Positions 2,491 to 63,998 of a stretch of DNA of 64,000 nucleotides are shown here, piece by piece; within the stretch, counting starts at the first letter, position 1; every line of letters starts with the position of its first letter. The stretch is taken from assembly GCA_964426555.1 (NCBI GenBank), contig CAYRQJ010000003.1, positions 1,229-65,228 of the forward strand, written 5' to 3'. Position numbers and translations under genes: made by a program. This DNA comes from an uncultured Candidatus Saccharibacteria bacterium (GTDB lineage: Bacteria; Patescibacteriota; Minisyncoccia; Phycocordibacterales; UBA9973). Under the pieces are notes generated by a model. It was not told the DNA's origin. It saw nothing but the letters and a program-made list of their open reading frames with translations, and ran no database searches.

Positions 2491-4089
2491 TTAGCTTCTC
2501 TTTGGTAAAAGTGCAAGCACTATGCGCCAAAATACATTTTTAAAATAAATAGCACTATTATTTAATTTTGAATTTGAACTTTTTAAATATATATAATATA
2601 TAAATAATATATAAATCCAAAATACTACAAAATATAATCCATACATTACATATACATTATTAAAATTATTATAAATAAAATTCATTAAAATTTTAGATAA
2701 CTTTACAGAAACAATAATCGTAAATAACCCGTATACCATAAACAACCATTCAGTTTTTATTGTTTTTTTGTATTTTATATTATAAATCAATAATCCTAAA
2801 AACATACTTAGAAACTGTGCCGCAGAATAAGCAATAGGGATAGCTAAAATTGCCCATTCTTTTGTGTTTGTATATTTATACAAGAAAAAAGAAAAAACAT
2901 AGGTAGTTAATGCTGATATAAAATTTGTAAATAAAGGTAGAAAATAATCACCCATAGCATATGCAGCTCTGGACATTAATAGAATCGTATTTTGAGCAAT
3001 TAAAGATATTGAGAAAATAAATAATGCTAACCCAGTATATACAACATCGTATATATTAAAATTACCACTACCAAAAAGGAAGTATATTATTTCATAATGA
3101 AACAAATAAAGAAAACCCGTTAATAACAATGAGATAATATAAATATTTCTAAAATTATAATTTAATATGCCCGTAAAATTCTCAATGTTTCCTTCGGTGT
3201 ATTCTTTTGCAAGCAAAGGTAATATAGTTGTAGCGTAAGATACTCCTGTTAATGTATGAAATACTGTTTGAATAGAAAACGCAATAGCAATAATAGTAAT
3301 ACTGCCTGCTGGATAAAGTGAAGCAAAGTAAGTGATCAAAAAAAATGTTACCGCAGATAAAGACAATGAAATAGTTCTCATTATAGACTTGGATAGCATT
3401 TCTCGAAGAATTGAAAAAGAAAATGATTTTAATAAAAATTTACCATAACCCAAAAATAAATTAGATTTTCTAATTTCTGGTAATTGAATACACAAATGCA
3501 TTATTGACCCCAAAACTACACCAATACATACACCCGTGATACCTAAAAATGGACGCAGCATAACAATTCCCAGTATAGTTCCCAGATTATACAACACTGG
3601 GGCTAACCCAACATGAATAAAATCTCTTTTGACTTGTGCAACACTGGAAATAATGGATGACATCGACAAGAATAACGTTGAAATCAACAAAATAGAACCA
3701 TATAGTATAATGTCGCGCTGAAAATCAATACTTGAATGTTTATATAAATTTGAAATTATTTTTGGTAAAAAAATTATTATAATTCCATATATAAATATAA
3801 AAAACAATAAAAAAGTAGTGAACAATTTTTGAAACCATATTCTTATATCATCTTCATATAATTTTTTTGAAAAATACGGAACCAATATTGCGCTACTTAC
3901 AAAAGAACCAACTGACAGATAAATAAATTCTGGAACTCTAAAAGCAGCATAATACGAGTCCAAAACAAATCCTGCCCCATAAATATGAGACAGGATTTTA
4001 TCACGAAGAAATCCCAGTAATTGTGAAATAAACGAGCTAATAGCAATAAAAAGAGTACTGTTACCAAGTATTGCTAATCTTCGTTTCAT
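2491..4089 (-). CDS. murJ: lipid II flippase MurJ (MviN family), polytopic membrane protein
   Basis: 532 aa with ~14 predicted TM helices. N-terminal 'LGFLRDKILSHIYGAGFVLDSYYAAFRVPEFIY' matches the conserved MurJ/MviN N-terminal motif. Confidence 0.65.
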   Translation of the reverse strand: MKRRLAILGNSTLFIAISSFISQLLGFLRDKILSHIYGAGFVLDSYYAAFRVPEFIYLSVGSFVSSAILVPYFSKKLYEDDIRIWFQKLFTTFLLFFIFIYGIIIIFLPKIISNLYKHSSIDFQRDIILYGSILLISTLFLSMSSIISSVAQVKRDFIHVGLAPVLYNLGTILGIVMLRPFLGITGVCIGVVLGSIMHLCIQLPEIRKSNLFLGYGKFLLKSFSFSILREMLSKSIMRTISLSLSAVTFFLITYFASLYPAGSITIIAIAFSIQTVFHTLTGVSYATTILPLLAKEYTEGNIENFTGILNYNFRNIYIISLLLTGFLYLFHYEIIYFLFGSGNFNIYDVVYTGLALFIFSISLIAQNTILLMSRAAYAMGDYFLPLFTNFISALTTYVFSFFLYKYTNTKEWAILAIPIAYSAAQFLSMFLGLLIYNIKYKKTIKTEWLFMVYGLFTIIVSVKLSKILMNFIYNNFNNVYVMYGLYFVVFWIYILFIYYIYLKSSNSKLNNSAIYFKNVFWRIVLALLPKRS

Positions 4090-4091
4090 AA

Positions 4092-25435: not shown

Positions 25436-26222
25436 GACGATGAATCTTTCGAATAATAAATCGCAAAATTATAAATACAAATAACAAACAAACTCCGTAA
25501 AATAAATATGCATTACTTAGAATATAAGCAATTGCCCCAAGAATCCAGGCATAAATATATTGTACAGGGGTAAGCAAGCTTCCGTCTGAGCGTGGTAGTG
25601 ATGATCTTAATTCTTGCAGTCTTTTTTCGTATTGCTGATTTTGTTTTACACTTTCGGTTATGTCTTTACGAATATCGATAATTTTTTTCTCGGCATCTAT
25701 TAAAAAATCTTGACGATAAGCATCAATCCCGCTTCCTGATTCTGGTACTACTTGGTTTTCGCTAGAAACAGTATATTCTTTAAATAGATTATCTTCTTTT
25801 ACTCCACCTTGTGTGTATATAGTTGTGCGAGCTTCTCTATTTTTTAAAACAACTAATTCTTTGGGTTTTTTAGGTAACGTTATATAAGTATCTTCCAATT
25901 TTAAAACAAAATTATTTATTCCAGGGCTTGCGTTCCATTCTAAAGAAAATCCAGAAAATTCTCCCACCTTTAAACTAAAGGCTTTTTCAGCTATTTTTTT
26001 ATCATTATTATATAATCTTGCAACACCACTAATTAACCCGCCAGATTCGTTATAAAAAGGCATTGAAATTCGGACCATTTCTCCTGAAACAGGTGAATCA
26101 TTTGACACTAAAATTTTATCACCGGTCAAACCAGCGTTACTTAATGTTTCAGCAAAAGACAAATTAGCAAAAATAACTAAAAAACTGGCAAGTACAAATT
26201 TTAAAATTATATTTTTTTTCAT
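25416..26222 (-). CDS. hypothetical exported protein with C-terminal membrane anchor
   Basis: 268 aa. Signal peptide 'MKKNIILKFVLASFLVIFANLSFA' and a C-terminal TM. Overlaps murE by 4 nt. Confidence 0.4.
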   Translation of the reverse strand: MKKNIILKFVLASFLVIFANLSFAETLSNAGLTGDKILVSNDSPVSGEMVRISMPFYNESGGLISGVARLYNNDKKIAEKAFSLKVGEFSGFSLEWNASPGINNFVLKLEDTYITLPKKPKELVVLKNREARTTIYTQGGVKEDNLFKEYTVSSENQVVPESGSGIDAYRQDFLIDAEKKIIDIRKDITESVKQNQQYEKRLQELRSSLPRSDGSLLTPVQYIYAWILGAIAYILSNAYLFYGVCLLFVFIILRFIIRKIHRHGNRHS

Positions 26223-27625
26223 ACAAAAGCTTTGATTAATTCTTCTTTGTCATCAAAATGATTTTTAACACCATTTATTTCTTGATAATCTTCGTGACCT
26301 TTACCTAATACCATTATAATGTCTCCTTCGCGAGCAATTTCTTTTGATTTTATTATTGCACCGTGGCGGTCAATAATAGTAAATACTTCTTTACCTAATT
26401 CTTCCGGTAAACCAGACTTCATTTCGTTTATTATAGATTCTGGGTCTTCATTGCGTGGGTTGTCGGATGTAAGAATTATTATATCAGCCATATCGTATGC
26501 AATACGCGCCATTACAGGTCTTTTTGATTTGTCTCTGTCTCCACCACAACCCAAAAGTGCAATAATTCTACCTTCTGTATTTATTTCTTTAGCTGCAGCT
26601 AATACATTTTCTACACCATCCGGAGTATGAGCATAATCCACAATGGCTTTAATATTGTTTTGTTCTACAGCTAATTCAAATCGTCCACGAGGAGCATCTA
26701 TTTCTTTGATAATTTTCTTTATATGATCTTCCTCAAAACCCAGTACTTTAAATACGGAATACGCCGCTAAGATATTATACTGGTTAAATCTTCCAATTAA
26801 TTTTGAATCTATAATTTCACCAAAATCTACTGTATTACTAAAACCATAGGTATAAACATTGGCCAATGTGTCTTTAACCATCATGCGTCCATATTCGTCG
26901 TCGGTATTAGTTATTGCCCATGCATTTTCACCCAAAGAATTAAAGAAATCTTTTTTTGCATTGGCGTAATTTTCGATAGTGTGATGAAAGTCTAAATGGT
27001 CATGTGATAAATTTGTAAATACTCCGCCAATAAAATTTACCCCATTTATCCGGTCTTGAACTACTGCATGAGAAGAAACTTCCATTACGGCGTATTCACA
27101 GTTTGCTTCTACCATTTCAAGAAATAATTTATGTAGTGCTATTGCGTCGGGTGTGGTTGGGGTTAGTCTTACAGTTTTTGCTGGATTTTCGTTTATAAAA
27201 TCTCCAAGTGTCCCAATTAACCCAACACGGCGATGGAAACCCATAAACATTTTATAGATTATATTAGTAACAGTTGTTTTACCGTTTGTACCAGTAACTC
27301 CTATAATTTTTAGCTTACTACTGGGGTTACCATAAAAAATACTAGCAACAGGACCAACTACTGTATTTGTGTCGTCTACTAATATGTACATGACCCCATC
27401 AGATAATTCCACAGGTAATACTTCACAAAAAATAACATTAGCCCCACTGTTAACAGCATTTGTAATATAATCGTGCCCATCCAGATTATTGCCCTTGATA
27501 GCAAAAAAACATGTGCTATCTGCAACTTCGTTTGAGTTAGTAGTAAGGTCATTTACCGTAGCAGTATTTGTACCATGAATTGTAAATTTAAAAGTTACCT
27601 GATTTAAAATTTCGTTTATGTCCAT
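26219..27625 (-). CDS. murE: UDP-N-acetylmuramoyl-L-alanyl-D-glutamate--2,6-diaminopimelate (or L-Lys) ligase
   Basis: 468 aa. 'IIGVTGTNGKTTVTNII' P-loop and C-terminal 'DNPRNEDP' motif typical of MurE. Confidence 0.85.
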   Translation of the reverse strand: MDINEILNQVTFKFTIHGTNTATVNDLTTNSNEVADSTCFFAIKGNNLDGHDYITNAVNSGANVIFCEVLPVELSDGVMYILVDDTNTVVGPVASIFYGNPSSKLKIIGVTGTNGKTTVTNIIYKMFMGFHRRVGLIGTLGDFINENPAKTVRLTPTTPDAIALHKLFLEMVEANCEYAVMEVSSHAVVQDRINGVNFIGGVFTNLSHDHLDFHHTIENYANAKKDFFNSLGENAWAITNTDDEYGRMMVKDTLANVYTYGFSNTVDFGEIIDSKLIGRFNQYNILAAYSVFKVLGFEEDHIKKIIKEIDAPRGRFELAVEQNNIKAIVDYAHTPDGVENVLAAAKEINTEGRIIALLGCGGDRDKSKRPVMARIAYDMADIIILTSDNPRNEDPESIINEMKSGLPEELGKEVFTIIDRHGAIIKSKEIAREGDIIMVLGKGHEDYQEINGVKNHFDDKEELIKAFV

Positions 27626-27727
27626 AAAATTATTATAGCATTAAACTGTTTGCTTTGAATAAATATTTAATTTGCTAAATTGTATTTATTGTGTTTAAAT
27701 TTATAAAATCCTAAAAGAAAACAGCAG

Positions 27728-30322: not shown

Positions 30323-30395
30323 ACTGTATGCCATATAAATATATAAAATCCCGGAATACGGGGTTTTATATATTTATGCTAGAATACATTTATGG

Positions 30396-30592
30396 ATCCC
30401 GTTAGAGATGATGTTGTTAAACAATTATACGAAAATTATAAATACAGAATTATAGTAAAAATAATAAGCGTTATTTAATTAAAGACGGAAACGCCTAATA
30501 TATCATGGAACAAAGTTATATAAAATTATTAATTAATAAAATAGGAGTACCTGATTTACAAGGATTAGGCGATTCCTATCTCTAACGGGATG
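30396..30592. repeat. diverged copy (D) of the GTCCCGTTAGA-ended palindromic cassette; outer end abuts the ATG of the 87-aa gene
   Basis: Left arm ggATCCCGTTAGAGATg (30395-30410). Right arm ATCTCTAACGGGATG (30577-30592), whose ATG is the start of ORF 30590..30853. AT-rich core between the arms. Confidence 0.5.
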
Positions 30593-37781: not shown

Positions 37782-39047
37782 TTATTTTGCAATTCTAACT
37801 TGGCCACCCATATATGGACGTAGTACCTCGGGAATTATTATACTACCATCAGCTTGTTGGAAATTTTCTACCAATGCTGCAGGTAAACGACTGGTTGCAC
37901 AAGCAGTATTGTTTAAAGAATGAACAAATCTTAGTTTTCCATCAGTATCGCGATATTTTATGTTTAGTCTACGAGTTTGAAAATCATGAAAATAAGAAGA
38001 AGAATGTGTTTCTCTGTATTTGTTTTGTGATGGCATCCAAGCTTCGATGTCGTATTTTTTTACCTGACCTAAACCAAGATCCCCTCCGCAGTTTACAACT
38101 ACATGATAAGGTAAACCTAGTTCACGCATTAAATGTTCTACATGAGCTGTAATTTCTTCGTGCCATTTTACAGATTCTTCATGATTGGCTTCTGTTAAAA
38201 TAACTTGTTCAATTTTAAAAAATTCATGAACACGAATTATGCCTTTGGTATCAGCACCGTGCTTACCAGCTTCTGCACGGAAACATGGAGAAAATGCAAT
38301 ATATTTTTTAGGTAAATCTGTTTGTTCGATTACTTCGTTCATATGGTAACCCATAGTAGCTACTTCGGCAGTACCAGCTAAATATTCATTTTCGCCTACT
38401 TTATATAAATCATCTTCTGACTGTGGAAGCATTCCGGTACCAATAAGAGATTCTTTACGCACAAGTGATGGCACTATCATAGGAGTATAACCTTGGTCAA
38501 TAAAATAATTCAAAAAATATTGCCATAAAGCAAAAAATAATTTTACTCCATCATTTTTCATAAAATATCCACGAAATCCAGAAACCTTTACTCCTCGTTC
38601 AAAATCAACCATATTTAAATTCTCCATTAGTTCAATATGGTCTTTGGGTGTAAATTCAAATTGTGGAATATCTCCCCATACACGAATTTCTACATTGTCT
38701 TCGTCACTGTCCCCGTCTGGCACAGACATGTCTGGAACATTTGGAACTTCTAACATCATCTTTTGCCAATTTGTAATAATATTACGCAAAGATTCTTCTT
38801 TTGTTTGAAGTTCATCTTTTACAATTTTCATTTCTTCCAGTGCGGTAGTTTTTTCATCTGCTGAAAGATTGGCAATATTAGCTGAAACTGCATTTTGACG
38901 ACTTCGAAGTTCTTCGACTTCTTTTAACAGAGACAATCTCTGGTCGTCCAAATTAACTAGTTCATCAATATTTAAATTAATGTGTTTTTTAGTTATTGCA
39001 TTTTTAACAATATCGGTATTTTCGCGAATGAATTTAATGTCTAACAT
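37782..39047 (-). CDS. serS: seryl-tRNA synthetase
   Basis: 421 aa. N-terminal coiled-coil arm 'MLDIKFIRENTDIVKNAITKKH...' and class II core 'FRAEAG'/'RVHEFFKIEQV'. Start codon fused to a cassette arm. Confidence 0.9.
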   Translation of the reverse strand: MLDIKFIRENTDIVKNAITKKHINLNIDELVNLDDQRLSLLKEVEELRSRQNAVSANIANLSADEKTTALEEMKIVKDELQTKEESLRNIITNWQKMMLEVPNVPDMSVPDGDSDEDNVEIRVWGDIPQFEFTPKDHIELMENLNMVDFERGVKVSGFRGYFMKNDGVKLFFALWQYFLNYFIDQGYTPMIVPSLVRKESLIGTGMLPQSEDDLYKVGENEYLAGTAEVATMGYHMNEVIEQTDLPKKYIAFSPCFRAEAGKHGADTKGIIRVHEFFKIEQVILTEANHEESVKWHEEITAHVEHLMRELGLPYHVVVNCGGDLGLGQVKKYDIEAWMPSQNKYRETHSSSYFHDFQTRRLNIKYRDTDGKLRFVHSLNNTACATSRLPAALVENFQQADGSIIIPEVLRPYMGGQVRIAK

Positions 39048-39170
39048 CCCGTTTAGAAGCAGGTCACGATCCAGATGGTCCCGTTAATGCTTTAGTTAAG
39101 TGAATAATGAATTTTATATTTATATATATCCTGTTCTTGTAATCGTGATCGTGGCTTCTAACGGGATAAC
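39045..39170. repeat. copy A of the palindromic intergenic cassette (between divergent serS and dprA)
   Basis: On the plus strand: CATCCCGTTTAGAAGCAGGTCACGATC ... AT-rich core ... GATCGTGGCTTCTAACGGGATaac. The CAT at 39045-47 is the serS start codon on the minus strand. Confidence 0.65.
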
Positions 39171-39211
39171 ATATAGCTATACTATAGCAAAAATAGTAAA
39201 ATGTATAAAGT

Positions 39212-40060
39212 ATGCAAATAAAAGAGTTATTAAAAAATGACTTTCCTAAAAGATTTGACGATTTACCACAATACCCAAAGAATCTTTTTATTATTGGTAA
39301 TTTGCCCGACCCAAATAAATATAAAAATTTAGTTATTGTAGGATCTCGTAAACATACCAGCTATGGTAAACAAGTTGTGCGTGACATTATAGCCGGACTT
39401 GCAACATATCCTATTAATATTGTATCCGGACTGGCTTTGGGAATTGATACACTGGCTCACGAAGAAGCGTTACGTCATGGAATGATAGTTACAGCATTCC
39501 CCGGTTCCGGATTAAATAAAAATTCTATACACCCGCAAAATAATGTAAGACTGGCAGAAAAAATTTTTGAATCCGGAGGATGCTTAATTTCCGAATACGA
39601 ACCCAATTTCAAAGCAACTCAATATAGCTTCCCACAAAGAAATCGTCTTATGGCTGGGTATGCTCACGCGGTATTAATAATTGAAGCCGAAGAAAAATCA
39701 GGAACATTAATTACTGCAAGACTAACCACAGAATATAATCGAGATTTATTAGTTGTACCTGGTTCAATTTATAATTCTACATCCAAAGGTACGAATTGGT
39801 TACTATCCCAAGGTGCTACCCCAGTAACATGTGCCAACGATGTATTGATTGCATTAGGTTTTGATATAAATACCCACACACAAAGAAATGATATTTCAAA
39901 AGAAGAAGCAGTAATACTGGAAATATTAACCGAACCCAAAACAAGAGACGAAATAATTCGTGAATGTGACGGTAGCACTGAAGAAATAAATAGTTTATTA
40001 ATGAAAATGGAACTACGTGGAATAATTGTGGAAGACGCTGGGTATTTTAGAGTAGTTTGA
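39212..40060 (+). CDS. dprA: DNA processing protein DprA (Smf)
   Basis: 282 aa. Rossmann-like 'VIVGSRKHTSYGKQVVRDIIAGLATYPINIVSGLALGIDTLAHEEALRHG' is the DprA signature. Confidence 0.85.
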   Translation: MQIKELLKNDFPKRFDDLPQYPKNLFIIGNLPDPNKYKNLVIVGSRKHTSYGKQVVRDIIAGLATYPINIVSGLALGIDTLAHEEALRHGMIVTAFPGSGLNKNSIHPQNNVRLAEKIFESGGCLISEYEPNFKATQYSFPQRNRLMAGYAHAVLIIEAEEKSGTLITARLTTEYNRDLLVVPGSIYNSTSKGTNWLLSQGATPVTCANDVLIALGFDINTHTQRNDISKEEAVILEILTEPKTRDEIIRECDGSTEEINSLLMKMELRGIIVEDAGYFRVV

Positions 40061-40108
40061 CAAATTATCTTATTAGTGGAATGATATATTAAATTTAATA
40101 TATCTACT

Positions 40109-40600
40109 ATGGACACAACAGAAATTCAAATTAACACTCTAAACATTACAACCAAGGTTCCTGTTAGAAGTAACTATGATGCAAAAAAATTTATTAAAGT
40201 TTCAGTTTCACTTGACTGGGATATTAAATTCTTTAAAACAGGACACCGGTTAAAAAAGTTTTTACGTGAAGAACATGTCAGAACATTGGATGAATTTATT
40301 CAACACTACGATCAACTATATGATAGCTGCCCATGGAAAGCATTGACTCAATTAGAAACATTCAATACTGCAATTCATAATATTCTGACCGGGCCTCCTT
40401 ATACAAAGGAAACTATGCAGTTTATTAAAAAGAACATAATTGGTCCAAGAAAAAGACCAAATGCAATTCAAAAGTCTTTCTTAAATGCTTTATATTTTTT
40501 TGAAACAATTTTTAATAAGTCAAAAGAATTCAAAGCTTTTGTAAATAAAAAAGCTAAAGATCTACAAATTACATGGGTTCCTATTTATAAATATTTATAA
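40109..40600 (+). CDS. hypothetical protein
   Basis: 163 aa, basic; sits between dprA and topA. Confidence 0.3.
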   Translation: MDTTEIQINTLNITTKVPVRSNYDAKKFIKVSVSLDWDIKFFKTGHRLKKFLREEHVRTLDEFIQHYDQLYDSCPWKALTQLETFNTAIHNILTGPPYTKETMQFIKKNIIGPRKRPNAIQKSFLNALYFFETIFNKSKEFKAFVNKKAKDLQITWVPIYKYL

Positions 40601-40604
40601 ATCA

Positions 40605-40656
40605 CCCAAAAAAATATTTTTTGCCAAGCAAACATGCTTGGCAATTTTATTTTTTA
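40605..40656 (+). terminator. intrinsic terminator (ttgccaagcaaacatgcttggcaa + T-run)
   Basis: 9-bp stem followed by T-rich run. Confidence 0.6.
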
Positions 40657-40740
40657 TTTGCCCCGTAGTAGATATTTTTTAAAAATATTCACTACAGGGT
40701 TTGCAAAAAAATTTAGTGTGTAGTATTAGTATAAGTACCT

Positions 40741-40858
40741 GTCCCGTTAGAAACCGCGATCGCAATAATAAAAAACATAAATATGAAAATACATTTAATC
40801 AACATTAAAAGAATAAATAAACAAGAACGTGATATGATCGCGATCTGTTTCTAACGGG
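40741..40858. repeat. copy B of the palindromic intergenic cassette; outer end runs directly into the topA ATG
   Basis: GTCCCGTTAGAAACCGCGATCGCAATA ... 65 nt AT-rich ... CGTGATATGATCGCGATCTGTTTCTAACGGG followed by ATG (40859). Contains the GCGATCGC and GATCGCGATC palindromes. Confidence 0.7.
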
Positions 40859-43129
40859 ATGAATAAGACATTAGTAATTGTAGAATCACCATCAAAAGCT
40901 AAAACTATTGAAAAATATTTAGGTACTGGTTTTACAGTGCGCGCATCTATTGGTCACATTCGTGATCTACCAAAATCAAACAAAATAGCTATTGATATTC
41001 CAGGTGGATTTATCCCCCATTACGAAGTTTCTAAAGGAAAAGAAAAAGTAATAAAAGAACTGCGTGATTTATCTACTAAAGCTGACAATATAATACTGGC
41101 AACCGACCCGGACCGCGAAGGTGAAGCTATAGCATGGCATTTACAAGAAGTTTTAAACGAAAAGCACAAAAAACCTTTGACAAATATTAAACGTGCTACT
41201 TTTCATGAAATTACAAAAGACGCAGTTTTAACTGCAATAAATCACCCTCGAGAAATTGACCAAGATTTACGTAAAGCTCAAGAAGCTCGTCGCGTACTGG
41301 ATCGTCTTGTGGGTTACGATTTGTCCGGAGTAATTTGGAAAAAAGTTCGTTATGGTTTGTCTGCGGGACGAGTTCAGTCCCCTGCAATGCGAATACTTTG
41401 CGAAAGAGAAAGAGAAATTTTAGCTTTTATACCCGAGCAATATTTTGTAATTGAAGCTGATTTAAAACCAGCCGGTAGTGAATTTTTAACATTTACATGC
41501 AGTATCGAACCAACAGATAAAAAAATAGTTGATGATATTTTAAAAAATGGCAAACAGGAAGATTGGTACGTAAAAGACATAAAAGACACCGAAGCAAAAC
41601 GTAGCCCAAAGCCACCTTTTGCAACATCGTCTTTACAACAAACAGCTTCAACAAGACTGGGATTTTCTCCATCTCGAACAATGCAAGTAGCCCAAAAATT
41701 GTATGAAGCCGGACATATTACATATATGCGTACAGATTCTACAAATCTTGGAACCGCCGCTATTGCTCAAATAAGTGACTTAATAAAAAAACAATACGGA
41801 GTAAATTATTTAGAAAACCGAGTATATAAAACAAAATCCAAAAATGCTCAAGAAGCTCACGAAGCAATTCGTCCTACTGACGTAAATAAAAAAAATATTG
41901 GCCAAACTGAAGAACAAAAGAAATTATATAACTTGATTTGGGAAAGAACCGTAGCATCACAAATGGTAGACGCACGTGTTATGCGCAGTAAAATTACAGC
42001 AAATATAAAAACAAATTCAATTCCCGATTTTACAGTAAATGGTTCAAAGTTAATTTTTGACGGATTTTTAAAAGTTGATACGGGAGCAATTGGCGAAGAA
42101 ACAATTCTACCAAAACTAAGTAAAGACGAAGATTTAAAATTAGTAGATTTACGTGATATTGAAAAATTTACTCAGCCACCAAATCGTTATACGGAAGCTG
42201 GACTAATTAAAGAATTAGAAGAACGTGGTATTGGCCGGCCTTCTACATATGCATCTATTATGCGCACTATTGAAGAACGCGGTTATGTAGATAAACAAGG
42301 TCGTACTTTATTCCCTACCGATACTGGTATGGTAGTTTCTGGATTTCTGGAAGAACATTTTGCAGACTATATTAGTGATACTTTTACAGCTGAGATGGAA
42401 GACAAGTTAGATGAAATTTCTGAAGGTAAAAGAGATTATAGTAAAACACTAACCGAATTTTATAATCCATTTTTAAAACTAGTTAAAGAAAAAGATAAAC
42501 TAGACAAAGCTACAAATATTGAGGGGGCACCTGATGATATTCTTTGCCCTAAATGTGGTAAGGCTATGATGGTAAAGCTGGCCCGTAATGGAAAATTTTA
42601 TTCTTGTATTGATTACCCAGATTGTATGGGTGCAAGAAAAATTGATGGCACAGAAATGCAAGGACCAAAAGAAATTGGTAGACCTTGTCCTAAATGTGGA
42701 ACCCCTGCCACAGAAGAAGTAATATACAACAAAGACGGCAGTGTTCGTAAAAGCCGAAAAACAAAAATAGTAGAACTGGGTAAATTGGTTCTGCGTGAAG
42801 GTAAATTTGGTAATTTTATATCTTGTTCTCGTTACCCTAAATGTAAATACATCGAAGAAGATGAAGAAGAAAAGAAGAAACGCGAAACTGGAGTAAAATG
42901 CCCACAATGTAGTGACGGTGTTATGAGCGAACGTCGCGGTAGATTTGGAATATTTTATTCTTGTAGTAATTACCCAACTTGCAAAAATGCGATAAAAGCT
43001 AAACCAACAGGAAATATTTGCCAAATGTGCAGTTCTTTAATGATGGATGGCACAAAAACTATACCGGAACGATGTAGTAATACTAAATGTCCAAACCATA
43101 GACCAGACAAACTAGAAAAAACCAAATAG
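40859..43129 (+). CDS. topA: DNA topoisomerase I with four C-terminal zinc ribbons
   Basis: 756 aa. Toprim 'TLVIVESPSKAKTIEKYLG', 'LATDPDREGEAIAWHL', catalytic 'ITYMRTDST' (Tyr), then 4 C4 modules (CPKCG...CIDYPDC; CPKCG...; CSRYPKC; CPQCS...CSNYPTC). Confidence 0.9.
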   Translation: MNKTLVIVESPSKAKTIEKYLGTGFTVRASIGHIRDLPKSNKIAIDIPGGFIPHYEVSKGKEKVIKELRDLSTKADNIILATDPDREGEAIAWHLQEVLNEKHKKPLTNIKRATFHEITKDAVLTAINHPREIDQDLRKAQEARRVLDRLVGYDLSGVIWKKVRYGLSAGRVQSPAMRILCEREREILAFIPEQYFVIEADLKPAGSEFLTFTCSIEPTDKKIVDDILKNGKQEDWYVKDIKDTEAKRSPKPPFATSSLQQTASTRLGFSPSRTMQVAQKLYEAGHITYMRTDSTNLGTAAIAQISDLIKKQYGVNYLENRVYKTKSKNAQEAHEAIRPTDVNKKNIGQTEEQKKLYNLIWERTVASQMVDARVMRSKITANIKTNSIPDFTVNGSKLIFDGFLKVDTGAIGEETILPKLSKDEDLKLVDLRDIEKFTQPPNRYTEAGLIKELEERGIGRPSTYASIMRTIEERGYVDKQGRTLFPTDTGMVVSGFLEEHFADYISDTFTAEMEDKLDEISEGKRDYSKTLTEFYNPFLKLVKEKDKLDKATNIEGAPDDILCPKCGKAMMVKLARNGKFYSCIDYPDCMGARKIDGTEMQGPKEIGRPCPKCGTPATEEVIYNKDGSVRKSRKTKIVELGKLVLREGKFGNFISCSRYPKCKYIEEDEEEKKKRETGVKCPQCSDGVMSERRGRFGIFYSCSNYPTCKNAIKAKPTGNICQMCSSLMMDGTKTIPERCSNTKCPNHRPDKLEKTK

Positions 43130-43235: not shown

Positions 43236-43274
43236 TTTAAAAATAGAACAGAGGTTGTGCTATAATACTCTCAT
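43236..43274 (+). promoter_or_regulatory. putative extended -10 promoter (TGcTATAAT) 8 nt upstream of rel ATG; likely leaderless
   Basis: tgctataat at 43258-43266 and ATG at 43275. No room for an SD, implying a leaderless or very short leader. Confidence 0.35.
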
Positions 43275-44726
43275 ATGCAACATATTGAGAGTATTTTTAA
43301 TATAAAGAAATTTTCAAAAAAAGAACGGGACGTATTGGAAAAAGCGTACGATTTTGCAAAGGCAGCTCACACTGGCCAACTAAGAAAAAGCGGTGAGCCT
43401 TATTTTGTGCATGTATTTACTACTGCAAAAAATTTAGCTGAACTAAATATGGACGGTAATGTAGTAGCTGCAGGATTTTTACATGACGTACTAGAAGATA
43501 CAAAAGTTACAGAAGAAGAAATGCAGAAATCTTTTGGTGATGATATTACAAATTTGGTTTTGGGTGTTACAAAACTGGGAACTGTAAAATATAAAGGAGT
43601 TGAACGTAGTGTAGAAAATTTGCGTAAATTTTTTGTATCTATGGCTGAAGACATGCGAGTTATAATTATTAAACTTGCAGATAGATTACATAATATTGAA
43701 ACACTATCTCACGTACGAGAAGACAAACAAAAACGAATTGCACTGGAGACACTGGAAGTATACGCCCCATTAGCAGATAGATTGTCCATGGGTAAATTAA
43801 AAGGTCGTCTTGAAGATGCAGCGTTTCCTTATGCTTATCCTAAAGAATATGGCGAAGTAAAACTATTAAGAGAATCTCGTAAAGATGCGGCACTACCTGA
43901 ATTAATAAAAGTAGAAAACAATATTAAAAAAATTCTAAATCAATATTCGTTAAAACCAATTACCGTAGACCACAGAGAAAAACATTTATATTCTCTATGG
44001 AAAAAACTGCATAAATATAAAATGGATATAAACCATGTATACGACATTATAGCTATGCGTATAGTGGTAAAAAATATTGAAGAATGTTATTTGGCATTGG
44101 GGTTAATTCATGGTGCTTACAAACCCCTGCCAGGCCGTATAAAAGACTATATAGCCCTGCCAAAGCCCAATGGCTACAGATCTCTCCATACCACAATTAT
44201 TACCGAATCTGGAGCAATTATAGAAATTCAAATTAGAACTGAAGAAATGCATAACGAAGCAGAATATGGTCTTGCTGCACACTATGCATACAAAGGAAAT
44301 TTCAATACTGAAGACGAAAAATACAATTGGGTTAAAGAATTGCGTGATACTCAAAGCGAAGAAGAAACCGTTGATGGGTTTTACAAAAATTTAAAAATGG
44401 ACTTTTTTAAAGATCGAGTTTTTGCTTTTACTCCCAAAGGTGACATTGTAAATCTTCCTGACGATGGGACTGTACTAGATTTTGCTTTTAATGTTCACAG
44501 TGAAATAGGGATGCATGCTCAAGCTGGCGAAGTAAATGGTAAATTTGCTGCGCTAAACCACAAATTGGTAAATGGTGATGTTGTAAAAATAATTACCGCT
44601 AAAAATGTAAAGCCATCCAGTAAATGGCTAGAATTTGCAAAATCTACAATGGCTCGTAAACATATAGAAAAACATTTAAAACAAAATTCCCTACTTTCAA
44701 AATTTCTTTCTTTTGGACAAAAATAA
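43275..44726 (+). CDS. RelA/SpoT homolog (HD hydrolase + (p)ppGpp synthetase + TGS), short form
   Basis: 483 aa. HD 'HDVLEDT', synthetase 'DIIAMRIVV' and 'RIKDYIALPKPNGYRSLHTTI', TGS 'VFAFTPKGDIVNLPDDGTVLDFAFNVHSEIG'. Ends after TGS, with no ACT/RIS domains. Confidence 0.8.
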   Translation: MQHIESIFNIKKFSKKERDVLEKAYDFAKAAHTGQLRKSGEPYFVHVFTTAKNLAELNMDGNVVAAGFLHDVLEDTKVTEEEMQKSFGDDITNLVLGVTKLGTVKYKGVERSVENLRKFFVSMAEDMRVIIIKLADRLHNIETLSHVREDKQKRIALETLEVYAPLADRLSMGKLKGRLEDAAFPYAYPKEYGEVKLLRESRKDAALPELIKVENNIKKILNQYSLKPITVDHREKHLYSLWKKLHKYKMDINHVYDIIAMRIVVKNIEECYLALGLIHGAYKPLPGRIKDYIALPKPNGYRSLHTTIITESGAIIEIQIRTEEMHNEAEYGLAAHYAYKGNFNTEDEKYNWVKELRDTQSEEETVDGFYKNLKMDFFKDRVFAFTPKGDIVNLPDDGTVLDFAFNVHSEIGMHAQAGEVNGKFAALNHKLVNGDVVKIITAKNVKPSSKWLEFAKSTMARKHIEKHLKQNSLLSKFLSFGQK

Positions 44727-45408: not shown

Positions 45409-46590
45409 CTATAGACTAAAGTTTGAAATATTATACAGATCTTCCTCACTTTCTTGATTTTCTTCTTCTTTTTTTGCTTCTTCTGTTATTATTTCGTTTT
45501 GAATTTCTTGTTTAATTTCTTCTACTATTTCAGGATTTAATACTATTTGATTTTCTTCTATATTTTGAACGAGACCAACTTCTATATTTTCTTTTAAAAT
45601 AGAATTATTTTCTAATAATATTTCCTGAGCAATTTCTTCAATATTATTAATTGTTTCTTCTGGGATATTTTCTATAATTATTTCTTCAGTTATTAAATTA
45701 GCTGGAGGCATTACTACACCACGCTCTCTTTCAAATCTTGTTAACATTGTTTCTCCCCGTGCAATTTCCTTTGATTTTAGTAATTGTAATATTTCATCCA
45801 AATCAGCATCTGAGAAAAAGTCTATTGTTATTTTACCACCATCAGCTTTTCTTTGAATATGAACACGTGTACCCAGTCTTTCTTCAAGATCATCTTCCAT
45901 GCTCATTACATTAGCATCAGGCAATAATTCGTGTTTACGAACACGGTCCACTGCAATACGACGAGCTATTCTTTCAGCTTCACGAACAGAAAGTTTTTTA
46001 TAAACTATTTCTTTAAACAAAGTTTGTTGTTCTTCGGGTCGAGATGCCAACATCATCAAAGGTCTAGTATGTCCTTCGTTTATTTTTCCGGCTTGCAATG
46101 CGTCCAGTATTTCTTGAGACATTTGCAAAATTCTAAGAGAGTTAGAAACATATTCGCGACTCTTACCCATTTTAAGACCAACCTGTGCATGAGTTAAATT
46201 AAATTCATCAATCAGTCTCATAAATGCACGTGCACGATCTACTGCATTTAGATCTTCACGTTGCAGGTTTTCAATGATAGCCAATTCCAGCTTCATCTTA
46301 TCGTCGTCCCCTTCACGAATAATAACAGGGACTTGTTTTATACCAGCCAGTTTTGAAGCACGTAAACGACGCTCTCCTGCAATCAGCTCGTACCTAGTTT
46401 CTAGACCCATGCCGTCGGGTCGTTCAAATTCACTGCGTGATACTACTAATGGTTGCAACACTCCGTATTGACGAATAGAATCTGAAAGATCTCTTAGTGG
46501 ACCATCTTCAAATTCCTTGCGTGGTTGGTAAGGATTTGGGTCGATTTTTTCGACATCGATTAAAAAAATTGAATTAGGATAAGGTGACAT
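45409..46590 (-). CDS. parB: chromosome partitioning protein ParB (Spo0J) with long acidic low-complexity C-terminal tail
   Basis: 393 aa. 'IDPNPYQPRKEFEDGPLRDLSDSIRQYGVLQPLVV' and 'ELIAGERRLRASKLAGIKQVPVIIRE' are ParB boxes. The last ~100 aa are E/I/N-rich ('EEIIIENIPEETINNIEEIAQEILLENN...'). Confidence 0.8.
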   Translation of the reverse strand: MSPYPNSIFLIDVEKIDPNPYQPRKEFEDGPLRDLSDSIRQYGVLQPLVVSRSEFERPDGMGLETRYELIAGERRLRASKLAGIKQVPVIIREGDDDKMKLELAIIENLQREDLNAVDRARAFMRLIDEFNLTHAQVGLKMGKSREYVSNSLRILQMSQEILDALQAGKINEGHTRPLMMLASRPEEQQTLFKEIVYKKLSVREAERIARRIAVDRVRKHELLPDANVMSMEDDLEERLGTRVHIQRKADGGKITIDFFSDADLDEILQLLKSKEIARGETMLTRFERERGVVMPPANLITEEIIIENIPEETINNIEEIAQEILLENNSILKENIEVGLVQNIEENQIVLNPEIVEEIKQEIQNEIITEEAKKEEENQESEEDLYNISNFSL

Positions 46591-46676
46591 AAAAAAATTA
46601 TATCATAAAGTAGATATTTTATAACTGTTGATAATAAGTTGATTTCAGTGTAAAGTAGATAAATAATTAAATACAT

Positions 46677-60604: not shown

Positions 60605-60616
60605 TTGTCATTTAGT

Positions 60617-60688
60617 GCCTCGTGAGGGGATCGAACCCCCGACCATCTCCTTAAGAGGGAGCTGCTCTACCAGCTGAGCTAACAAGGC
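60617..60688 (-). tRNA. tRNA-Lys (anticodon CTT)
   Basis: Reverse complement: acceptor gccttgt/acgaggc, D-arm tagctcagctggtagagca, anticodon loop cTCTTaa, T-arm ggggg-ttcgatc-ccctc. Confidence 0.7.
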
Positions 60689-60789
60689 AAAACAAAAATT
60701 AAAATTTTGTTAAGTTAGTTTATAATAAATAAACATAAAAATCAATCTGCTATTGAATATTTTCTTAAAATAGTATAAAGTATATCCAT

Positions 60790-60871
60790 GCCGAGGTGGC
60801 GAAATTGGTAGACGCACTGGTCTTAGGAACCAGCTCCGCAAGGAATGGAGGTTCAAGTCCTCTCCTCGGCA
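60790..60871 (+). tRNA. tRNA-Leu (anticodon TAG)
   Basis: Acceptor gccgagg/cctcggc, anticodon stem ctggt/accag with loop cTTAGga, long variable arm, T-arm ggagg-ttcaagt-cctct. Confidence 0.8.
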
Positions 60872-60888
60872 CACGCCCTCACCCAATT

Positions 60889-60974
60889 GCCCGAGTGATG
60901 GAATGGTAGACATAGGGGACTTAAAATCCCCAGGACATAGTCCGTGTGGGTTCGAGTCCCACCTTGGGCACCAA
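60889..60974 (+). tRNA. tRNA-Leu (anticodon TAA), CCA encoded
   Basis: Acceptor gcccgag/cttgggc, anticodon stem gggga/tcccc with loop cTTAAaa, long variable arm, T-arm gtggg-ttcgagt-cccac, 3' ACCA. Confidence 0.8.
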
Positions 60975-61106
60975 GAGAGCACGCAAGGCGTGCGTGTGGA
61001 CGAGAAAACCTTTTCTATATTTATGAGCCCCGTTATGTTCTCGGGGTGAATAAATAGAAAAGGTGTACAGATCCTGTAAGGATCGAGTTCTGGTATTAAA
61101 TAACAA

Positions 61107-61178
61107 GGTCCAGTCGCCAAGTGGTAAGGCAAGAGTCTGCAAAACTCTTATACGGCGGTTCGATTCCGCCCTGGGCCT
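61107..61178 (+). tRNA. tRNA-Cys (anticodon GCA)
   Basis: Acceptor ggtccag/ctgggcc (one G-U pair), anticodon stem agagt/actct with loop cTGCAaa, T-arm ggcgg-ttcgatt-ccgcc. Confidence 0.75.
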
Positions 61179-61193
61179 CACTAAACGACAATA

Positions 61194-61231: not shown

Positions 61232-61480
61232 TTATGAAGCAGATTGTAATGTATTTATAAGTAAGTTTAATATTCCATAAACTCCAAACATTATAAACAA
61301 ACCAATTAATCCCCACATCATATGTTTAGTCCCCTTGTTTCTAGCTTCTTCACTGCTAGCATCCATTATCATTTCAACTACTCCCCAAATAAACACAACC
61401 AGGGCAACTATAAACATTAGTTTAATTAAAGGTTGTACAATATTTGAGACCAATGCTCCGATAATTTTGGAACTATCCAT
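61232..61480 (-). CDS. TrbC/VirB2-like pilin paralog P1 (two-helix small membrane protein)
   Basis: 82 aa. Hydrophobic helix 'LMFIVALVVFIWGVVEMIM', charged loop 'DASSEEARNKGTKH', second helix 'MMWGLIGLFIMFGVYGIL'. Same architecture as P2-P4. Confidence 0.5.
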   Translation of the reverse strand: MDSSKIIGALVSNIVQPLIKLMFIVALVVFIWGVVEMIMDASSEEARNKGTKHMMWGLIGLFIMFGVYGILNLLINTLQSAS

Positions 61481-61488
61481 AAATTAAA

Positions 61489-61890
61489 TTAACAGTTTTG
61501 ACTTTGACCAGGAACACAAGGAAGTGTTACATCAGCAGAACCAGGTGTACCAGTACCTAATGTACGACGTACGATAGCTACAAGACCCCAAATTGTTGTT
61601 ATAACGAATAGACCCAACACACCATACAAGATTGTACCTTGAGCTTTCTTTTGAGCTTCTTCCCCACCACTACGTCCTGCAATGATGAATTGCACTACAC
61701 CAATGATGATCATTAAGATAGCAAACCCTACTAAAACACGAATGAACAAGTTCATTAATGATTGACCAGTACTAAGGATTGTTCCTACTGTTTGTGGACC
61801 AGTATAAGCTGGACCAACGTTAGTAGTACCCTGAGCAAATGATGCAATAGGAGCCAAGAAACCGAAAGCAAGTATTAATAAATTACGCAT
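61489..61890 (-). CDS. TrbC/VirB2-like pilin paralog P2
   Basis: 133 aa. Signal peptide 'MRNLLILAFGFLAPIASFA', helix 'FIRVLVGFAILMIIIGVVQFIIAG', loop 'RSGGEEAQKKAQG', helix 'TILYGVLGLFVITTIWGLVAIVRRTLG'. Cys-containing C-terminal tail. Confidence 0.5.
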   Translation of the reverse strand: MRNLLILAFGFLAPIASFAQGTTNVGPAYTGPQTVGTILSTGQSLMNLFIRVLVGFAILMIIIGVVQFIIAGRSGGEEAQKKAQGTILYGVLGLFVITTIWGLVAIVRRTLGTGTPGSADVTLPCVPGQSQNC

Positions 61891-61979
61891 ATTAAATGAA
61901 AATTCTTTGTTAATAATATAGTCTTATTATACTATATATTCTTATAATCAAGCAAGGAAATAAGGTCTTTTGTGTATAA

Positions 61980-63326
61980 CTATTTTATAATAATCTTTAC
62001 TTCGTTAGTTACATAGACTTTACTAGTTGTAATATCTTTATAGTGATACATTATACAACTTTGTGTCCCGGAGCCTGGTATTGTATAAGTTGGAGAAGTA
62101 TAACCAGTATCAGCAGTTAAGCTTTTATTAGAATTTTTTTCTAAAATATTCGGTCCAATAGTTCCGTCTCCTCCAATTATTTTGCATTGCACAAATAACA
62201 CACCATTATATGGAGTAAATGATTTATTAACATCCCAACCAAATTTACCTGTTACTGATCCAGCTTTTTCGCTAATCTTACTAAATGTTAAATTAGCAGT
62301 ATAAGGATTTGGAGTAATAGCATCTTTTGTTATTAAAGGAAAATTACCACTTGTTGTACCAGAACTTGTATTATTATTTGAAGCTGGCGCTTGACTACCA
62401 GCAGTAAGTAAGCTTTTTGAAGTATAACCAAGAAATGTTTTATCAGATTTAAAGATATTCCAAAAACCACTGGTTTCCCCACTAACATTTAAAACAGTTC
62501 CATAAGCATTTTTAGTAATAATATTGGCTGATGAAGCAGTGCTTGGGTCAGATCTTAGGTTTGCACCATTTAGAGCATTTACATAGTATTGTTTCAAAGT
62601 TCCAGCTACAGGAGAATTATCCGCAGGAGGAGTTACTACTGGGTCAGTTTTAACTGAATCACCCTGAGAATTTGTTGGTTCTTTTGCTACATCTTTTTGA
62701 GTATTAGGGTCTACTACTGTTCCAGTATTTGTTCCGTTGGTAGTTGTATTACCAGTACCCACCCCGGTTGTTGTATTATTATTTAAAACTGCACCTGCTG
62801 TTGCTGTTCCGTTAGAATTATTTACATTATTAACTACCCCAGCATTGGAGCCTGAATTAACTAGATTATTATTGTTGGTAATACTGGAATTACTAACCCC
62901 ACTGTCTTTTGAAATATTTGAAACAGTATCAATAATTACATTTGAAATTAACTGTGCCCCAAGAATTATTGCGGCCCCAATCAAAGTCCAAGTTAAAGTT
63001 TTATGAGCTGTTTCGATTGCTTCTGGTTTACCACGAGCAACAACATATAAGAATCCAGAATATATAACCATTACAATAATAACTGGTATAGCAAACTCAA
63101 TCACAACTTTTAAAATTTTTGCAATTAAATCTTTGATTGTAGTAGTACAACCCGTACCACCTTTTTTGTCACAAATTGGATTATCAATTGCTACCTTTAA
63201 TTCAAAATTATCCGCCGGAGTAGCAGTTTTAGCATCTTGTGCAATTGCTAATTTAGGAAGCATTGCAAAGTTTCCAGAAAATACAACTATTAAAAACAAT
63301 AAAGATGTTAGAAAATTTTTTTTCAT
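61980..63326 (-). CDS. giant pilin-like paralog P3: TrbC/VirB2-like N-terminal module + N/T/G/S low-complexity linker + SH3b-like domain + unknown C-terminal domain
   Basis: 448 aa. Signal peptide, helix 'ILKVVIEFAIPVIIVMVIYSGFLYVVARG', loop 'KPEAIETAHKT', helix 'LTWTLIGAAIILGAQLIS'. A ~120-aa linker follows ('NNNNLVNSGSNAGVVNNVNNSNGTATAGAVLNNNTTTGVGTGNTTTNGTNTGT'), then 'YYVNALNGANLRSDPSTASSANIITKNAYGTVLNVSGETSGFWNIFKSDKTFLGYTSKSLL' (SH3_3-like). Start codon fused to the cassette C arm. Confidence 0.5.
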   Translation of the reverse strand: MKKNFLTSLLFLIVVFSGNFAMLPKLAIAQDAKTATPADNFELKVAIDNPICDKKGGTGCTTTIKDLIAKILKVVIEFAIPVIIVMVIYSGFLYVVARGKPEAIETAHKTLTWTLIGAAIILGAQLISNVIIDTVSNISKDSGVSNSSITNNNNLVNSGSNAGVVNNVNNSNGTATAGAVLNNNTTTGVGTGNTTTNGTNTGTVVDPNTQKDVAKEPTNSQGDSVKTDPVVTPPADNSPVAGTLKQYYVNALNGANLRSDPSTASSANIITKNAYGTVLNVSGETSGFWNIFKSDKTFLGYTSKSLLTAGSQAPASNNNTSSGTTSGNFPLITKDAITPNPYTANLTFSKISEKAGSVTGKFGWDVNKSFTPYNGVLFVQCKIIGGDGTIGPNILEKNSNKSLTADTGYTSPTYTIPGSGTQSCIMYHYKDITTSKVYVTNEVKIIIK

Positions 63327-63447
63327 CCCGTTAGAAGCAGATCGCGATCAAATCACGATTTTGCTTTATTATACTTATAATTTTACTTTTATTTAAATTC
63401 ATATATTTATTATCTTATCATATTGCGATCGCGGCTTCTAACGGGAC
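63324..63447. repeat. copy C of the palindromic intergenic cassette, in opposite orientation to copy B; outer end abuts the P3 start codon
   Basis: CATCCCGTTAGAAGCAGATCGCGATCAAATCACG ... AT-rich ... ATTGCGATCGCGGCTTCTAACGGGAC. The reverse complement aligns end-to-end with copy B. Confidence 0.65.
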
Positions 63448-63452
63448 AGGTT

Positions 63453-63998
63453 CTACTTTAAATTTAAAGCTTTATCTTTTAATTGTTCATAAGGCGCCGA
63501 ATCACCTGTATTTATACCAAAACCAAATGTTCTTCTTATAACAGCAACCAATGCATATACTGCTGTTATAACAAAAAAACCAATAATTCCATAAAGAATA
63601 AATTGTCTACCTTTTGCTTGAGATTCTTCACTTGCAGGATTACGAAGCATTACTGTGACTCCCCATACAAAAGAAACTGTAGCAATAGCAAAAATAAATG
63701 GCAGTATAGATACCCGAACTAAACAACCGATGTAATCTACATAACCACCAAATGTTTTATTGTTGCTAGCCACAGTACATGTATTTGTCCCAGCACTGCG
63801 CAAAATAGATGTATCATTATTAATATTACCTTCTGTTGTAATATTTACTTTTTCATTACCAACAACATTAGTATCACTGCCAACAAAATTATCCTCGGCT
63901 GTCCAGTTAACTGGACTATTTGTGTCGTCGGCTCCAAAACCACTAAACTGTGCATTTGTAAACACCGGTACAATACATATTAAAAGCATAACTAGCAC
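63453..63998 (-). CDS. TrbC/VirB2-like pilin paralog P4 (GTG/ATG start near window edge; may be slightly truncated by the window)
   Basis: 181 aa. Signal peptide 'MLVMLLICIVPVFTNA', ~90-aa Cys-containing N-terminal region, then helix 'LVRVSILPFIFAIATVSFVWGVTVML', loop 'RNPASEESQAKGRQ', helix 'FILYGIIGFFVITAVYALVAVIRRTFG' (C-terminus homologous to P2). Confidence 0.5.
   Translation of the reverse strand: MLVMLLICIVPVFTNAQFSGFGADDTNSPVNWTAEDNFVGSDTNVVGNEKVNITTEGNINNDTSILRSAGTNTCTVASNNKTFGGYVDYIGCLVRVSILPFIFAIATVSFVWGVTVMLRNPASEESQAKGRQFILYGIIGFFVITAVYALVAVIRRTFGFGINTGDSAPYEQLKDKALNLK

Follow-up and report, generated by a model that had tools for sequence, protein, structure and literature searches.

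A start-codon-adjoining palindromic repeat in a Saccharibacteria contig is very probably an ORF-less copy of a mobile element family of Patescibacteria

In 64 kb of DNA from an uncultured Candidatus Saccharibacteria bacterium (the window; 64,000 nucleotides of contig CAYRQJ010000003.1, here numbered from its first letter), a palindromic element named copy C stands directly in front of P3, a gene for a pilin-like protein, and similar elements stand in front of serS (copy A), topA (copy B) and a small membrane-protein gene (copy D). This raises the question of whether an upstream element common to such different genes is a control region, as the original prediction assumed, or a piece of DNA that has repeatedly been inserted there. 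[quoted passage not shown]

A relaxed search of the window returned exactly four copies (D, A, B and C), which are scattered in both genomic orientations at the 5' ends of genes and in all of which ...CTAACGGG is fused straight to the start codon. Copy D was not part of the original prediction. The reverse complement of copy C (63324-63450, minus strand) could be aligned with copy B (40741-40861, plus strand) over the full length by MAFFT, ends as well as interior, as had been predicted. The distal end reads GTCCCGTTAGAA[A/G]CCGCGATCGCAAT and the proximal end CGTGAT[A/T]TGATCGCGATCTG[T/C]TTCTAACGGGATG, also written TTCTAACGGG-ATG; each arm carries one purine or pyrimidine difference, compensated in the opposite arm, and the ends are otherwise identical. 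The similarity extends beyond the ends of about 14 nt, as the AT-rich interiors are 72% identical and their alignment score of 28 was reached by none of 500 shuffles (8.5 +/- 3.9), while the same-strand control alignment scored -6. The motif CCCGTTAGAARC is far commoner in the window than in shuffles, and GCGATCGC is, within the window, confined to B and C. The parts of the four copies and their immediate surroundings are as follows.

63327-63445, minus strand: core of copy C, 119 nt, CCCG...CGGG; belongs to the element family and has no ORF
63434-63445, minus strand: gene-distal (5') arm of copy C, CCCGTTAGAAGC in gene orientation; family-wide, positions 10-12 covary with the opposite arm
63427-63433, minus strand: 5' strand of the inner helix of copy C, CGCGATC
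63343-63349, minus strand: 3' strand of the inner helix of copy C, GATCGCG
63339-63342, minus strand: bulge on the gene-proximal side of copy C, ATCT, 4 nt; family consensus WYCT
63327-63338, minus strand: gene-proximal (3') arm of copy C, GCTTCTAACGGG
63324-63326, minus strand: ATG start codon of P3, with A and T paired to the distal GT; family-wide the A tracks the terminal base of the element
63446-63452, minus strand: left flank of copy C, AACCTGT, separating the element from the stop codon of P4; a single T in relatives; a class 2 flank (see below)
63453-63455, minus strand: TAG stop codon of P4; in relatives 1 nt ahead of the P3 ATG
61980-63326, minus strand: P3, the host gene with the targeted start codon, encoding a 448-aa T4SS-pilin/SH3-like protein
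40737-40861, plus strand: copy B, with flank ACCTGT (40737-40742), core (40743-40858) and topA ATG (40859-40861); same subfamily as C
39045-39172, minus strand: copy A, with serS ATG (39047-39045), core (39048-39165) and duplicated ATGTTA+T (39172-39166)
30377-30592, plus strand: copy D, with a 192-nt core (30398-30589) and rebuilt ATG (30590-30592); a small membrane-protein gene (87-aa ORF) lies downstream

Three of these positions are empty in relatives. At serS, the loci L120, L121 and L209 (SerS 83-84% identical) read TGCTATAGT-atatccat-ATGTTAGACATT, whereas the occupied window sequence is TGCTATAGT-atagctat-ATGTTA[T CCCG...CGGG]ATGTTAGACATT, so that the leaderless promoter TGCTATAGT of copy A lies further upstream of the duplicated ATGTTA+T. 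At topA, the same TTTGCA-N17-18-TAGTAT promoter leads directly to the ATG in L120, L121 and L213. The P4/P3 junction of L123 (P3 66% identical) and L125 (59%) reads ...AATTTAAAGTAG T ATGAAAAAA, and that of the window ...AATTTAAAGTAG AACCTGT[element]ATGAAAAAAAA. These results show that copy C is an ORF-less member of the family inserted between P4 and P3. L211/L213 (SerS 83% identical) carries an ortholog of copy A that shares its duplication and its bulged A, and since this genome has an empty topA site, B is a separate and later insertion than A.

Species-representative genomes were scanned with the pattern CCCGTTAGAR-N84-114-YTCTAACGGGAT. The ends ATCCCGTTAGA...TCTAACGGGAT were found in at least 119 genome stretches, mostly from Patescibacteria; among the 80 loci listed, about 60 carry a Patescibacteria label (Saccharibacteria, Paceibacterota/Parcubacteria, Kaiser-, Wolfe-, Yanofsky-, Nomura- and Levybacteria, Kazan), about 10 lack a classification and another 7 bear other labels. 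Among 2.9 million viral contigs there were no real copies, and the two long-gap matches obtained, both inside unrelated ORFs, are due to chance. Together the listed loci and the window gave a census of 162 copies, in 134 of which an ATG adjoins exactly one side, with GTG in a few.

The flanks of these copies carry the trace of insertion. Among 138 oriented copies, 99 have the opening 4-6 nt of the ORF (X) on both sides, in the order X+T, CCCG...CGGG, X, where X is ATGAA in 54 copies, ATGGA in 16 and ATGAG in 14; of the window copies, A (ATGTTA) and D (ATGGA) have this form. A duplicated TGNN was counted in 119 copies, and in all but one of these (118/119) the first base of the downstream codon follows the terminal pair of the element, T...A giving ATG and C...G giving GTG. 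All seven informative ATG/GTG cases agree, four with an upstream ATG and a downstream GTG and three the other way round. From this tracking it follows that the element is T-CCCG...CGGG-A, that the duplication is TGNN(N) and that the rebuilt start codon takes its first base from the element. Thus, our results show that an element of the form 5'-T CCCGTTAGARNN ... NNYTCTAACGGG A-3' duplicates 4-5 nt of its target (TGNN) and rebuilds the start codon with its terminal A (or G), and that it sits between the initiation signals of the host and the ORF. A TAnnnT -10 hexamer was present 5-9 nt ahead of the first ATG in 42 of the 99 copies, compared to 14.7 expected, and both A and D show it, while no enrichment of Shine-Dalgarno (SD) sequences upstream of the first ATG was observed (7 observed, 6.4 expected). 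In copy D an extended -10 box, TGCTAGAAT, at 30377-30385 precedes by 6 nt the first ATG, which is part of the first ATGGA+T at 30392-30397, and the ATGGA duplication is perfect.

Not all copies follow this form. In roughly 15-25% of the family, including B, C and some nuclease-bearing copies, ACCTGT, ACTTGT or ATCTGT replaces the expected ATGNN+T. The length of this class 2 flank is unchanged and its A sits at the ancestral A of the ATG or at the transcription start; the AACCTGT of copy C occupies the position expected for a duplicated ATGAA+T. Because its left duplicate is replaced by ACCTG, the evidence for insertion of copy C itself is the empty site only. None of the origins considered for ACCTGT/ACTTGT explains it, whether a decayed duplicate, fused tandem elements, a copied internal bulge motif or a helix lengthened by wobble pairs. 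A 13-nt sequence, TAAAGTAGAACCT, precedes the element both in copy C (63446-63463, minus strand) and at the unrelated locus L117 (4370-4387, with an ABC-F ATPase downstream), which may be chance or a piece of the class 2 flank.

A full-length form of about 276 nt has the same ends as the ORF-less copies and encloses a gene for an 84-aa stand-alone GIY-YIG nuclease. The copy at L093 (3889-4164) is 276 nt long and has a complete 84-aa ORF (Pfam GIY-YIG, E = 3.6e-16, no further domain); L014 also has the nuclease-bearing form. A search of metagenome contigs with the L093 protein gave at least 471 relatives, and both arms with the same start-codon duplication were found in 72 of the best 80 of these loci, which are free of any bias of the DNA pattern since they were found through the protein. 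Of 63 distinct elements retrieved in this way, 44 have ATG and 9 have GTG as their right flank. The ORF is co-oriented with the host gene and comes in two geometries: in 24 elements it begins 5 nt past the 5' arm and is closed by the TAA of TCTAACGGG inside the 3' arm, and in 29 it runs through the arm (...RLKRFLSLTG) to a TGA that overlaps the host's rebuilt ATG (ATGA). The original host ATG is the in-frame start of the longest ORF in 14-16 elements (M-N/S/D-P-V-R-D-...). This geometry of starts and stops suggests that the nuclease gene borrows the promoter and initiation site of the host and returns the ribosomes to the host gene.

The nuclease gene is also part of the fold of the element. 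Its LRKRL codons (ACGGAAGCGCC) form a long-range pairing, P2, with its last codons (GGCGCTTCCT), which is complete (9/9) in 46 of the 63 elements and 8/9 in 14, compared to at most 7 with a shuffled probe, and which covaries (GGAAGCGCC/GGCGCTTCC, GGAAACGCT/AGCGTTTCC, GGAAACGAC/GTCGTTTCC). Removing the P2 loop of about 155 nt from the full-length form yields about 115 nt, the size of the ORF-less copies, many of which retain ACGG-hairpin-CCT ahead of the 3' arm; in window copy D, P2 is retained as the stem ACGGAAACGCCTAAT/ATTAGGCGATTCCT around an extra insert. Window copies A-D are ORF-less derivatives. We propose that the nuclease mobilises the element, perhaps by recognising the folded palindrome; copies of about 115 nt such as A-D would have arisen when the ORF between the P2 strands was lost, and would rely on nuclease supplied in trans. 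Copy C has the marks of a MITE, with a 119-nt core, complementary arms of 12-14 nt, multiple copies and, in the family, duplications as well as empty sites (the latter for A, B and C). Going further, we lean, with clear reservations, towards a previously unrecognised class of selfish DNA, in which an 84-aa GIY-YIG gene and a palindrome target start codons, capture the promoter and initiation site of the host, restore the host gene through the rebuilt codon and either ATGA or a bridging hairpin, and have spawned hundreds of ORF-less copies at essential genes across the candidate phyla radiation (CPR). A full-text literature search found no published description of the element; most subscription journals were outside its coverage and an earlier account may exist.

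Further observations concern the movement and remnants of the family. Near-identical copies occur at different genes within one genome (three in L090, two in L082), which suggests recent mobility. Tandem copies with one common ATGAAT were seen at L079 (5473-5710), L015 (7674-7895), L105 (3563-3800), L012 (5899-6280) and L093 (around 3870-4170), and their junction, ...TCTAACGGG ATGAAT CCCGTTAGA..., is a perfect palindrome with a 6-nt spacer. Minimal forms of 24-30 nt, consisting of two arms and a few bases, lie at L058 (2141-2170), L070 (2990-3013), L078 (1252-1280) and L112 (2661-2687); these are maybe deletion products or footprints, and some are in genomes without a CPR label. Related small GIY-YIG genes without arms were found beside or inside duplicated tRNA gene fragments (L012 2217-2543; L018 6522-6824), suggesting that the nuclease family colonises tRNA loci too.

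As single strands, A-D are predicted to fold into long hairpins of -30 to -47 kcal/mol (z = -4.1 to -6.2, with no shuffle as stable); the RNA fold of copy C has -38.3 kcal/mol (z = -6.2). The window copies have a basal helix of 14 bp, within which the start-codon A and U pair to an AT or GT at the distal end. Beyond it, A, B and C have a 4-nt gene-proximal bulge (ATCT or ACCT), an inner helix of 7-8 bp and a variable interior, and they belong to a subfamily in which the inner helix adjoins the arms. The inner helix is complementary at 6/7 positions or more in 39 of 92 forward copies and in none of the shuffles, with covarying variants (CGCGATC/GATCGCG, CGCGGTC/GACCGCG, CACGGTC/GACCGTG). Arm positions 10-12, which were free or merely purine/pyrimidine-constrained in the search pattern, form Watson-Crick pairs in 125-133 of 138 copies, with all R-R-Y combinations in use. 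In the L211 ortholog of copy A, the first 24 and the last 24 nt match the window copy at 100% identity, but the interior of about 70 nt is only about two-thirds identical and has insertions and deletions, which indicates purifying selection on the arms from insertion onwards. A gathering-threshold scan of the window against Rfam 15 returned tRNAs only, with no structured-RNA match on the element, and an E-value scan of three element-bearing loci gave no match on the element at E <= 1.

If the element were a regulatory device, the genes behind it would be expected to have something in common. The ORFs downstream are real genes (median about 220 aa) and mutually unrelated, with 142 Pfam families among 120 proteins from many phyla, including TopA, L17, L9, L29, RRF, Adk, SecDF, SecG, PheT, MurG and T2SS-F, and this spread argues against a regulon. 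The prediction that the element ties P3 to serS and topA holds in so far as the same element stands at all three genes, but the shared control that it implied does not: the Pfam spread, the empty orthologous junctions, the duplications and the ends common to a nuclease-encoding element all indicate repeated insertion rather than co-regulation. Two other parts of that prediction were borne out, namely that the element is a discrete unit and not two independent operator sites, and that its far end serves no gene, as P4 ends 7 nt away (stop codon 63455-63453).

What, then, would copy C do to the gene behind it? P4 and P3 are 1 nt apart in relatives, and such spacing is typical of translational coupling. 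Beyond the hairpin of copy C, the gene strand continues with ATGAAAAAAAATTTT and the other strand with ACAGGTTCTAC, and the combination of a GC-rich hairpin and an immediate U tract that defines an intrinsic terminator is not present; a terminator scan of 38900-41000, which covers copies A and B and not C, listed the small internal stem of B alone. Since a terminator-like U tract is absent, copy C is presumably transcribed together with P4 and P3. The interrupted hairpin of 14 + 7 bp would close off the 126-nt insert and bring the stop codon of P4, which lies 7 nt from the helix, next to the P3 AUG at its base. On terminating at the end of P4, a ribosome could then cover and melt the first helix pairs and leave the P3 AUG free for re-initiation. 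We tentatively propose, at somewhat less than even chances, that coupling from P4 to P3 may survive by such melting of the helix base. The main alternative, possible and somewhat less probable, is by analogy with other hairpin repeats that the hairpin may be cut by a double-strand-specific RNase such as RNase III. In copies with an upstream ATG (A, D), a short leaderless upstream ORF (uORF) entering the 5' arm could have the same outcome, and in copy A this uORF reads AUG UUA UCC CGU UAG; the lack of any upstream ORF in B argues that translational unmasking cannot be the sole route.

Some other roles were considered and set aside. An in-frame N-terminal extension or a uniform leader peptide does not agree with the frames between the two ATGs (46/31/22) and the scattered uORF stops, a sigma-70 promoter in the proximal arm would place TCTAAC plus just 3 nt ahead of the ATG, and an extracytoplasmic function (ECF)-like GGAA-N15-TCTAA promoter is missing from the CGCG-type subfamily that includes B and C. 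The start of P3 itself is at 63326-63324 on the minus strand, the first codon of the 448-aa ORF as predicted, and its homologues begin at the equivalent ATG. In the public annotation (protein P0121, 427 aa) the start of P3 is placed 21 codons downstream from the homologues' ATG, and the element probably misled the gene caller here.

Four other explanations were weighed against insertion of a nuclease-associated element. That of the original prediction, a shared cassette (promoter with operator half-sites, or a repressible leader) co-regulating serS, topA and the pilin-like gene, would fit the same element lying directly upstream of several genes in one genome, inverted arms that could bind a dimeric protein, and -10-like hexamers such as TATAAT in the AT-rich interior of copy C. 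Besides the unrelated families downstream, however, close relatives lack the element at the orthologous junctions and keep the same host promoter, which in occupied sites remains upstream of the element, target-site duplications flank the copies, and the compensated variation in the arms argues against a fixed protein site; the cassette is already largely refuted and we give it very little credence. An invertible promoter switch (inverton) for phase variation of a surface-structure gene has still less to recommend it and its probability is negligible: the segment of about 100 bp between inverted repeats upstream of a pilin-like gene and the opposite polarity of a few family members are outweighed by the presence of the same element at serS, topA and ribosomal protein genes, by the polarity of 92 forward vs. 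6 reverse, by duplications and empty sites, and by window ORF lists that show no invertase or recombinase gene nearby.

Closer to our own interpretation is a conventional MITE moved by a standard transposase that has escaped identification, with GIY-YIG as a passenger homing-endonuclease gene and with the start-codon location a product of selection alone. Terminal inverted repeats, a 4-5 bp duplication, small size and many copies are all expected from such an element, the IS5, IS1380 and ISH3 families make 4-5 bp duplications, and GIY-YIG genes do occur outside arms, beside tRNA genes (L012, L018). Yet 72 of 80 close GIY-YIG relatives are bounded by the arms, the ORF enters the 3' arm and its codons form P2, the short copies have the size predicted by deletion of the P2 loop from the nuclease form, no longer, transposase-bearing element with the same ends was seen in about 1 Mb of loci, and the rarity of neutral intergenic insertions is poorly accounted for by selection alone, so we consider this explanation unlikely. 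Removal or skipping at the RNA level, either intron-like or as a translational bypass ("hop") that takes off and lands at the duplicated ATGNN, would make use of the start-codon direct repeats at both ends, which the helix brings together, and would fit the presence of the element in essential genes; a nuclease ORF in the loop is also reminiscent of mobile introns. It is nevertheless very unlikely, as the copies are confined to start codons instead of occurring anywhere in ORFs, no Rfam or intron signature is present, 115 nt is far below known self-splicing cores, the splice-site rules of group I and II introns, as reasoned from the sequence, cannot be satisfied in any register, B and C lack an upstream ATG copy, and the frame between the two ATGs is unconstrained.

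Several points also weigh against our preferred interpretation of a start-codon-targeting mobile element. No transposase of a known class is present, the mobilising role of the GIY-YIG protein is something that we infer, and to our knowledge a lone GIY-YIG domain has no established transposition chemistry. No GIY-YIG ORF was detected in the window by phmmer, and hence no nuclease-bearing copy lies within it. The forward polarity of the ORF-less copies (92 forward, 6 reverse and 40 of other subfamilies) is without explanation, and the class 2 flank of B and C is of a kind that simple insertion followed by point mutation cannot produce. Arm mismatches (15 G.U vs. 10 A.C) do not discriminate between pairing as RNA and as DNA, and co-transcription, the hairpin at the RNA level and the effect on P3 expression are proposals derived from sequence.

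The window has a GC content of 32%. In most genes that come first in an operon, TGnTAnAAT stands 6-9 nt ahead of the ATG and an SD is missing (e.g. 43254-43277, 26219-27650, 45409-46615), and operon-internal genes are likewise without SD; the short distance of the extended -10 box and the absence of SD suggest that transcripts are mostly leaderless. P3 and P4 belong to a conserved run of T4SS-pilin-family (PF18895) genes (61232-63998, minus strand, and L123/L125), comprising a 791-aa protein, P4 (about 192 aa, its start beyond the end of the window), P3, a 133-aa and an 82-aa protein, which in relatives are tightly packed with 1-nt spacers. Nearby, four tRNA genes are clustered at 60616-60688 (minus strand), 60790-60871, 60889-60970 and 61107-61178 (all plus strand), and this cluster accounts for GC-rich spurious ORFs at 60710-61181. 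Between dprA and topA, a 163-aa ORF (40109-40600) and a strong terminator hairpin (40621-40644) make a second structural difference at this locus, as L120 and L121 are without the 163-aa ORF and L213 has a 180-aa ORF there.

If a lone GIY-YIG domain together with a folded palindrome suffices to move DNA, this would be a new transposition or homing chemistry. The family is also a natural experiment on initiation, as it places a stable hairpin of 14-22 bp on the start codons of essential genes such as serS, topA, ribosomal protein genes and secDF, in hosts that are mostly leaderless and SD-free, which makes translation of the hairpin-bearing genes directly testable. In practical terms, the element misleads gene callers, as illustrated by the 21 codons missing from P3 in the public record, and it marks recent as well as ancient insertions in uncultured CPR lineages.

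Among known systems, the Correia elements of Neisseria (CREE/NEMIS) are similar in being about 100-160 bp long, with terminal inverted repeats, a short duplication and many copies beside genes, and in having transcripts that fold to a long hairpin, as is predicted from sequence here; cleavage of the Correia hairpins by RNase III has been reported. Their termini are unrelated, however, and their duplication is TA rather than TGNN, whereas the element described here inserts at the start codon, rebuilds the codon with its last base, has a partner that encodes a GIY-YIG nuclease and not a DDE transposase, and is spread across CPR phyla. Free-standing GIY-YIG genes of the phage T4 seg/mob type are likewise small, selfish, wedged between host genes and dependent on host expression. 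Here, in contrast, the protein is an 84-aa catalytic domain without a DNA-binding domain, its gene is bounded by a conserved 14-bp palindrome with a target duplication and ORF-less derivatives, and the targets are hundreds of unrelated genes instead of one homing site; as a GIY-YIG gene is encoded by the full-length relatives only, copy C itself is not a homing-endonuclease gene. Covarying pairing that is conserved over sequence, a strand or orientation bias and small non-autonomous derivatives are shared with hairpin-dependent mobile DNA, namely IS200/IS605 and PATEs, REPIN/RAYT and integron attC sites, but no HUH or tyrosine recombinase is involved here. IS200/IS605 elements make no target duplication, unlike the present element, and compared to attC the RYYYAAC...GTTRRRY order is reversed (GTTAGAR in the 5' strand, YTCTAAC in the 3' strand) and there are no cassette arrays. 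Rickettsia palindromic elements (RPEs) resemble the family as palindromic repeats of about 100-150 bp in reduced genomes that are tolerated inside expressed genes, although RPEs are in frame and translated, while the present element sits at the start codon, is unconstrained in frame and rebuilds the start. Taken together, start-codon-specific insertion, rebuilding of the codon by its own terminus, a GIY-YIG catalytic domain as the sole ORF, and capture of translation in frame or through ATGA set this family apart from all the systems compared.

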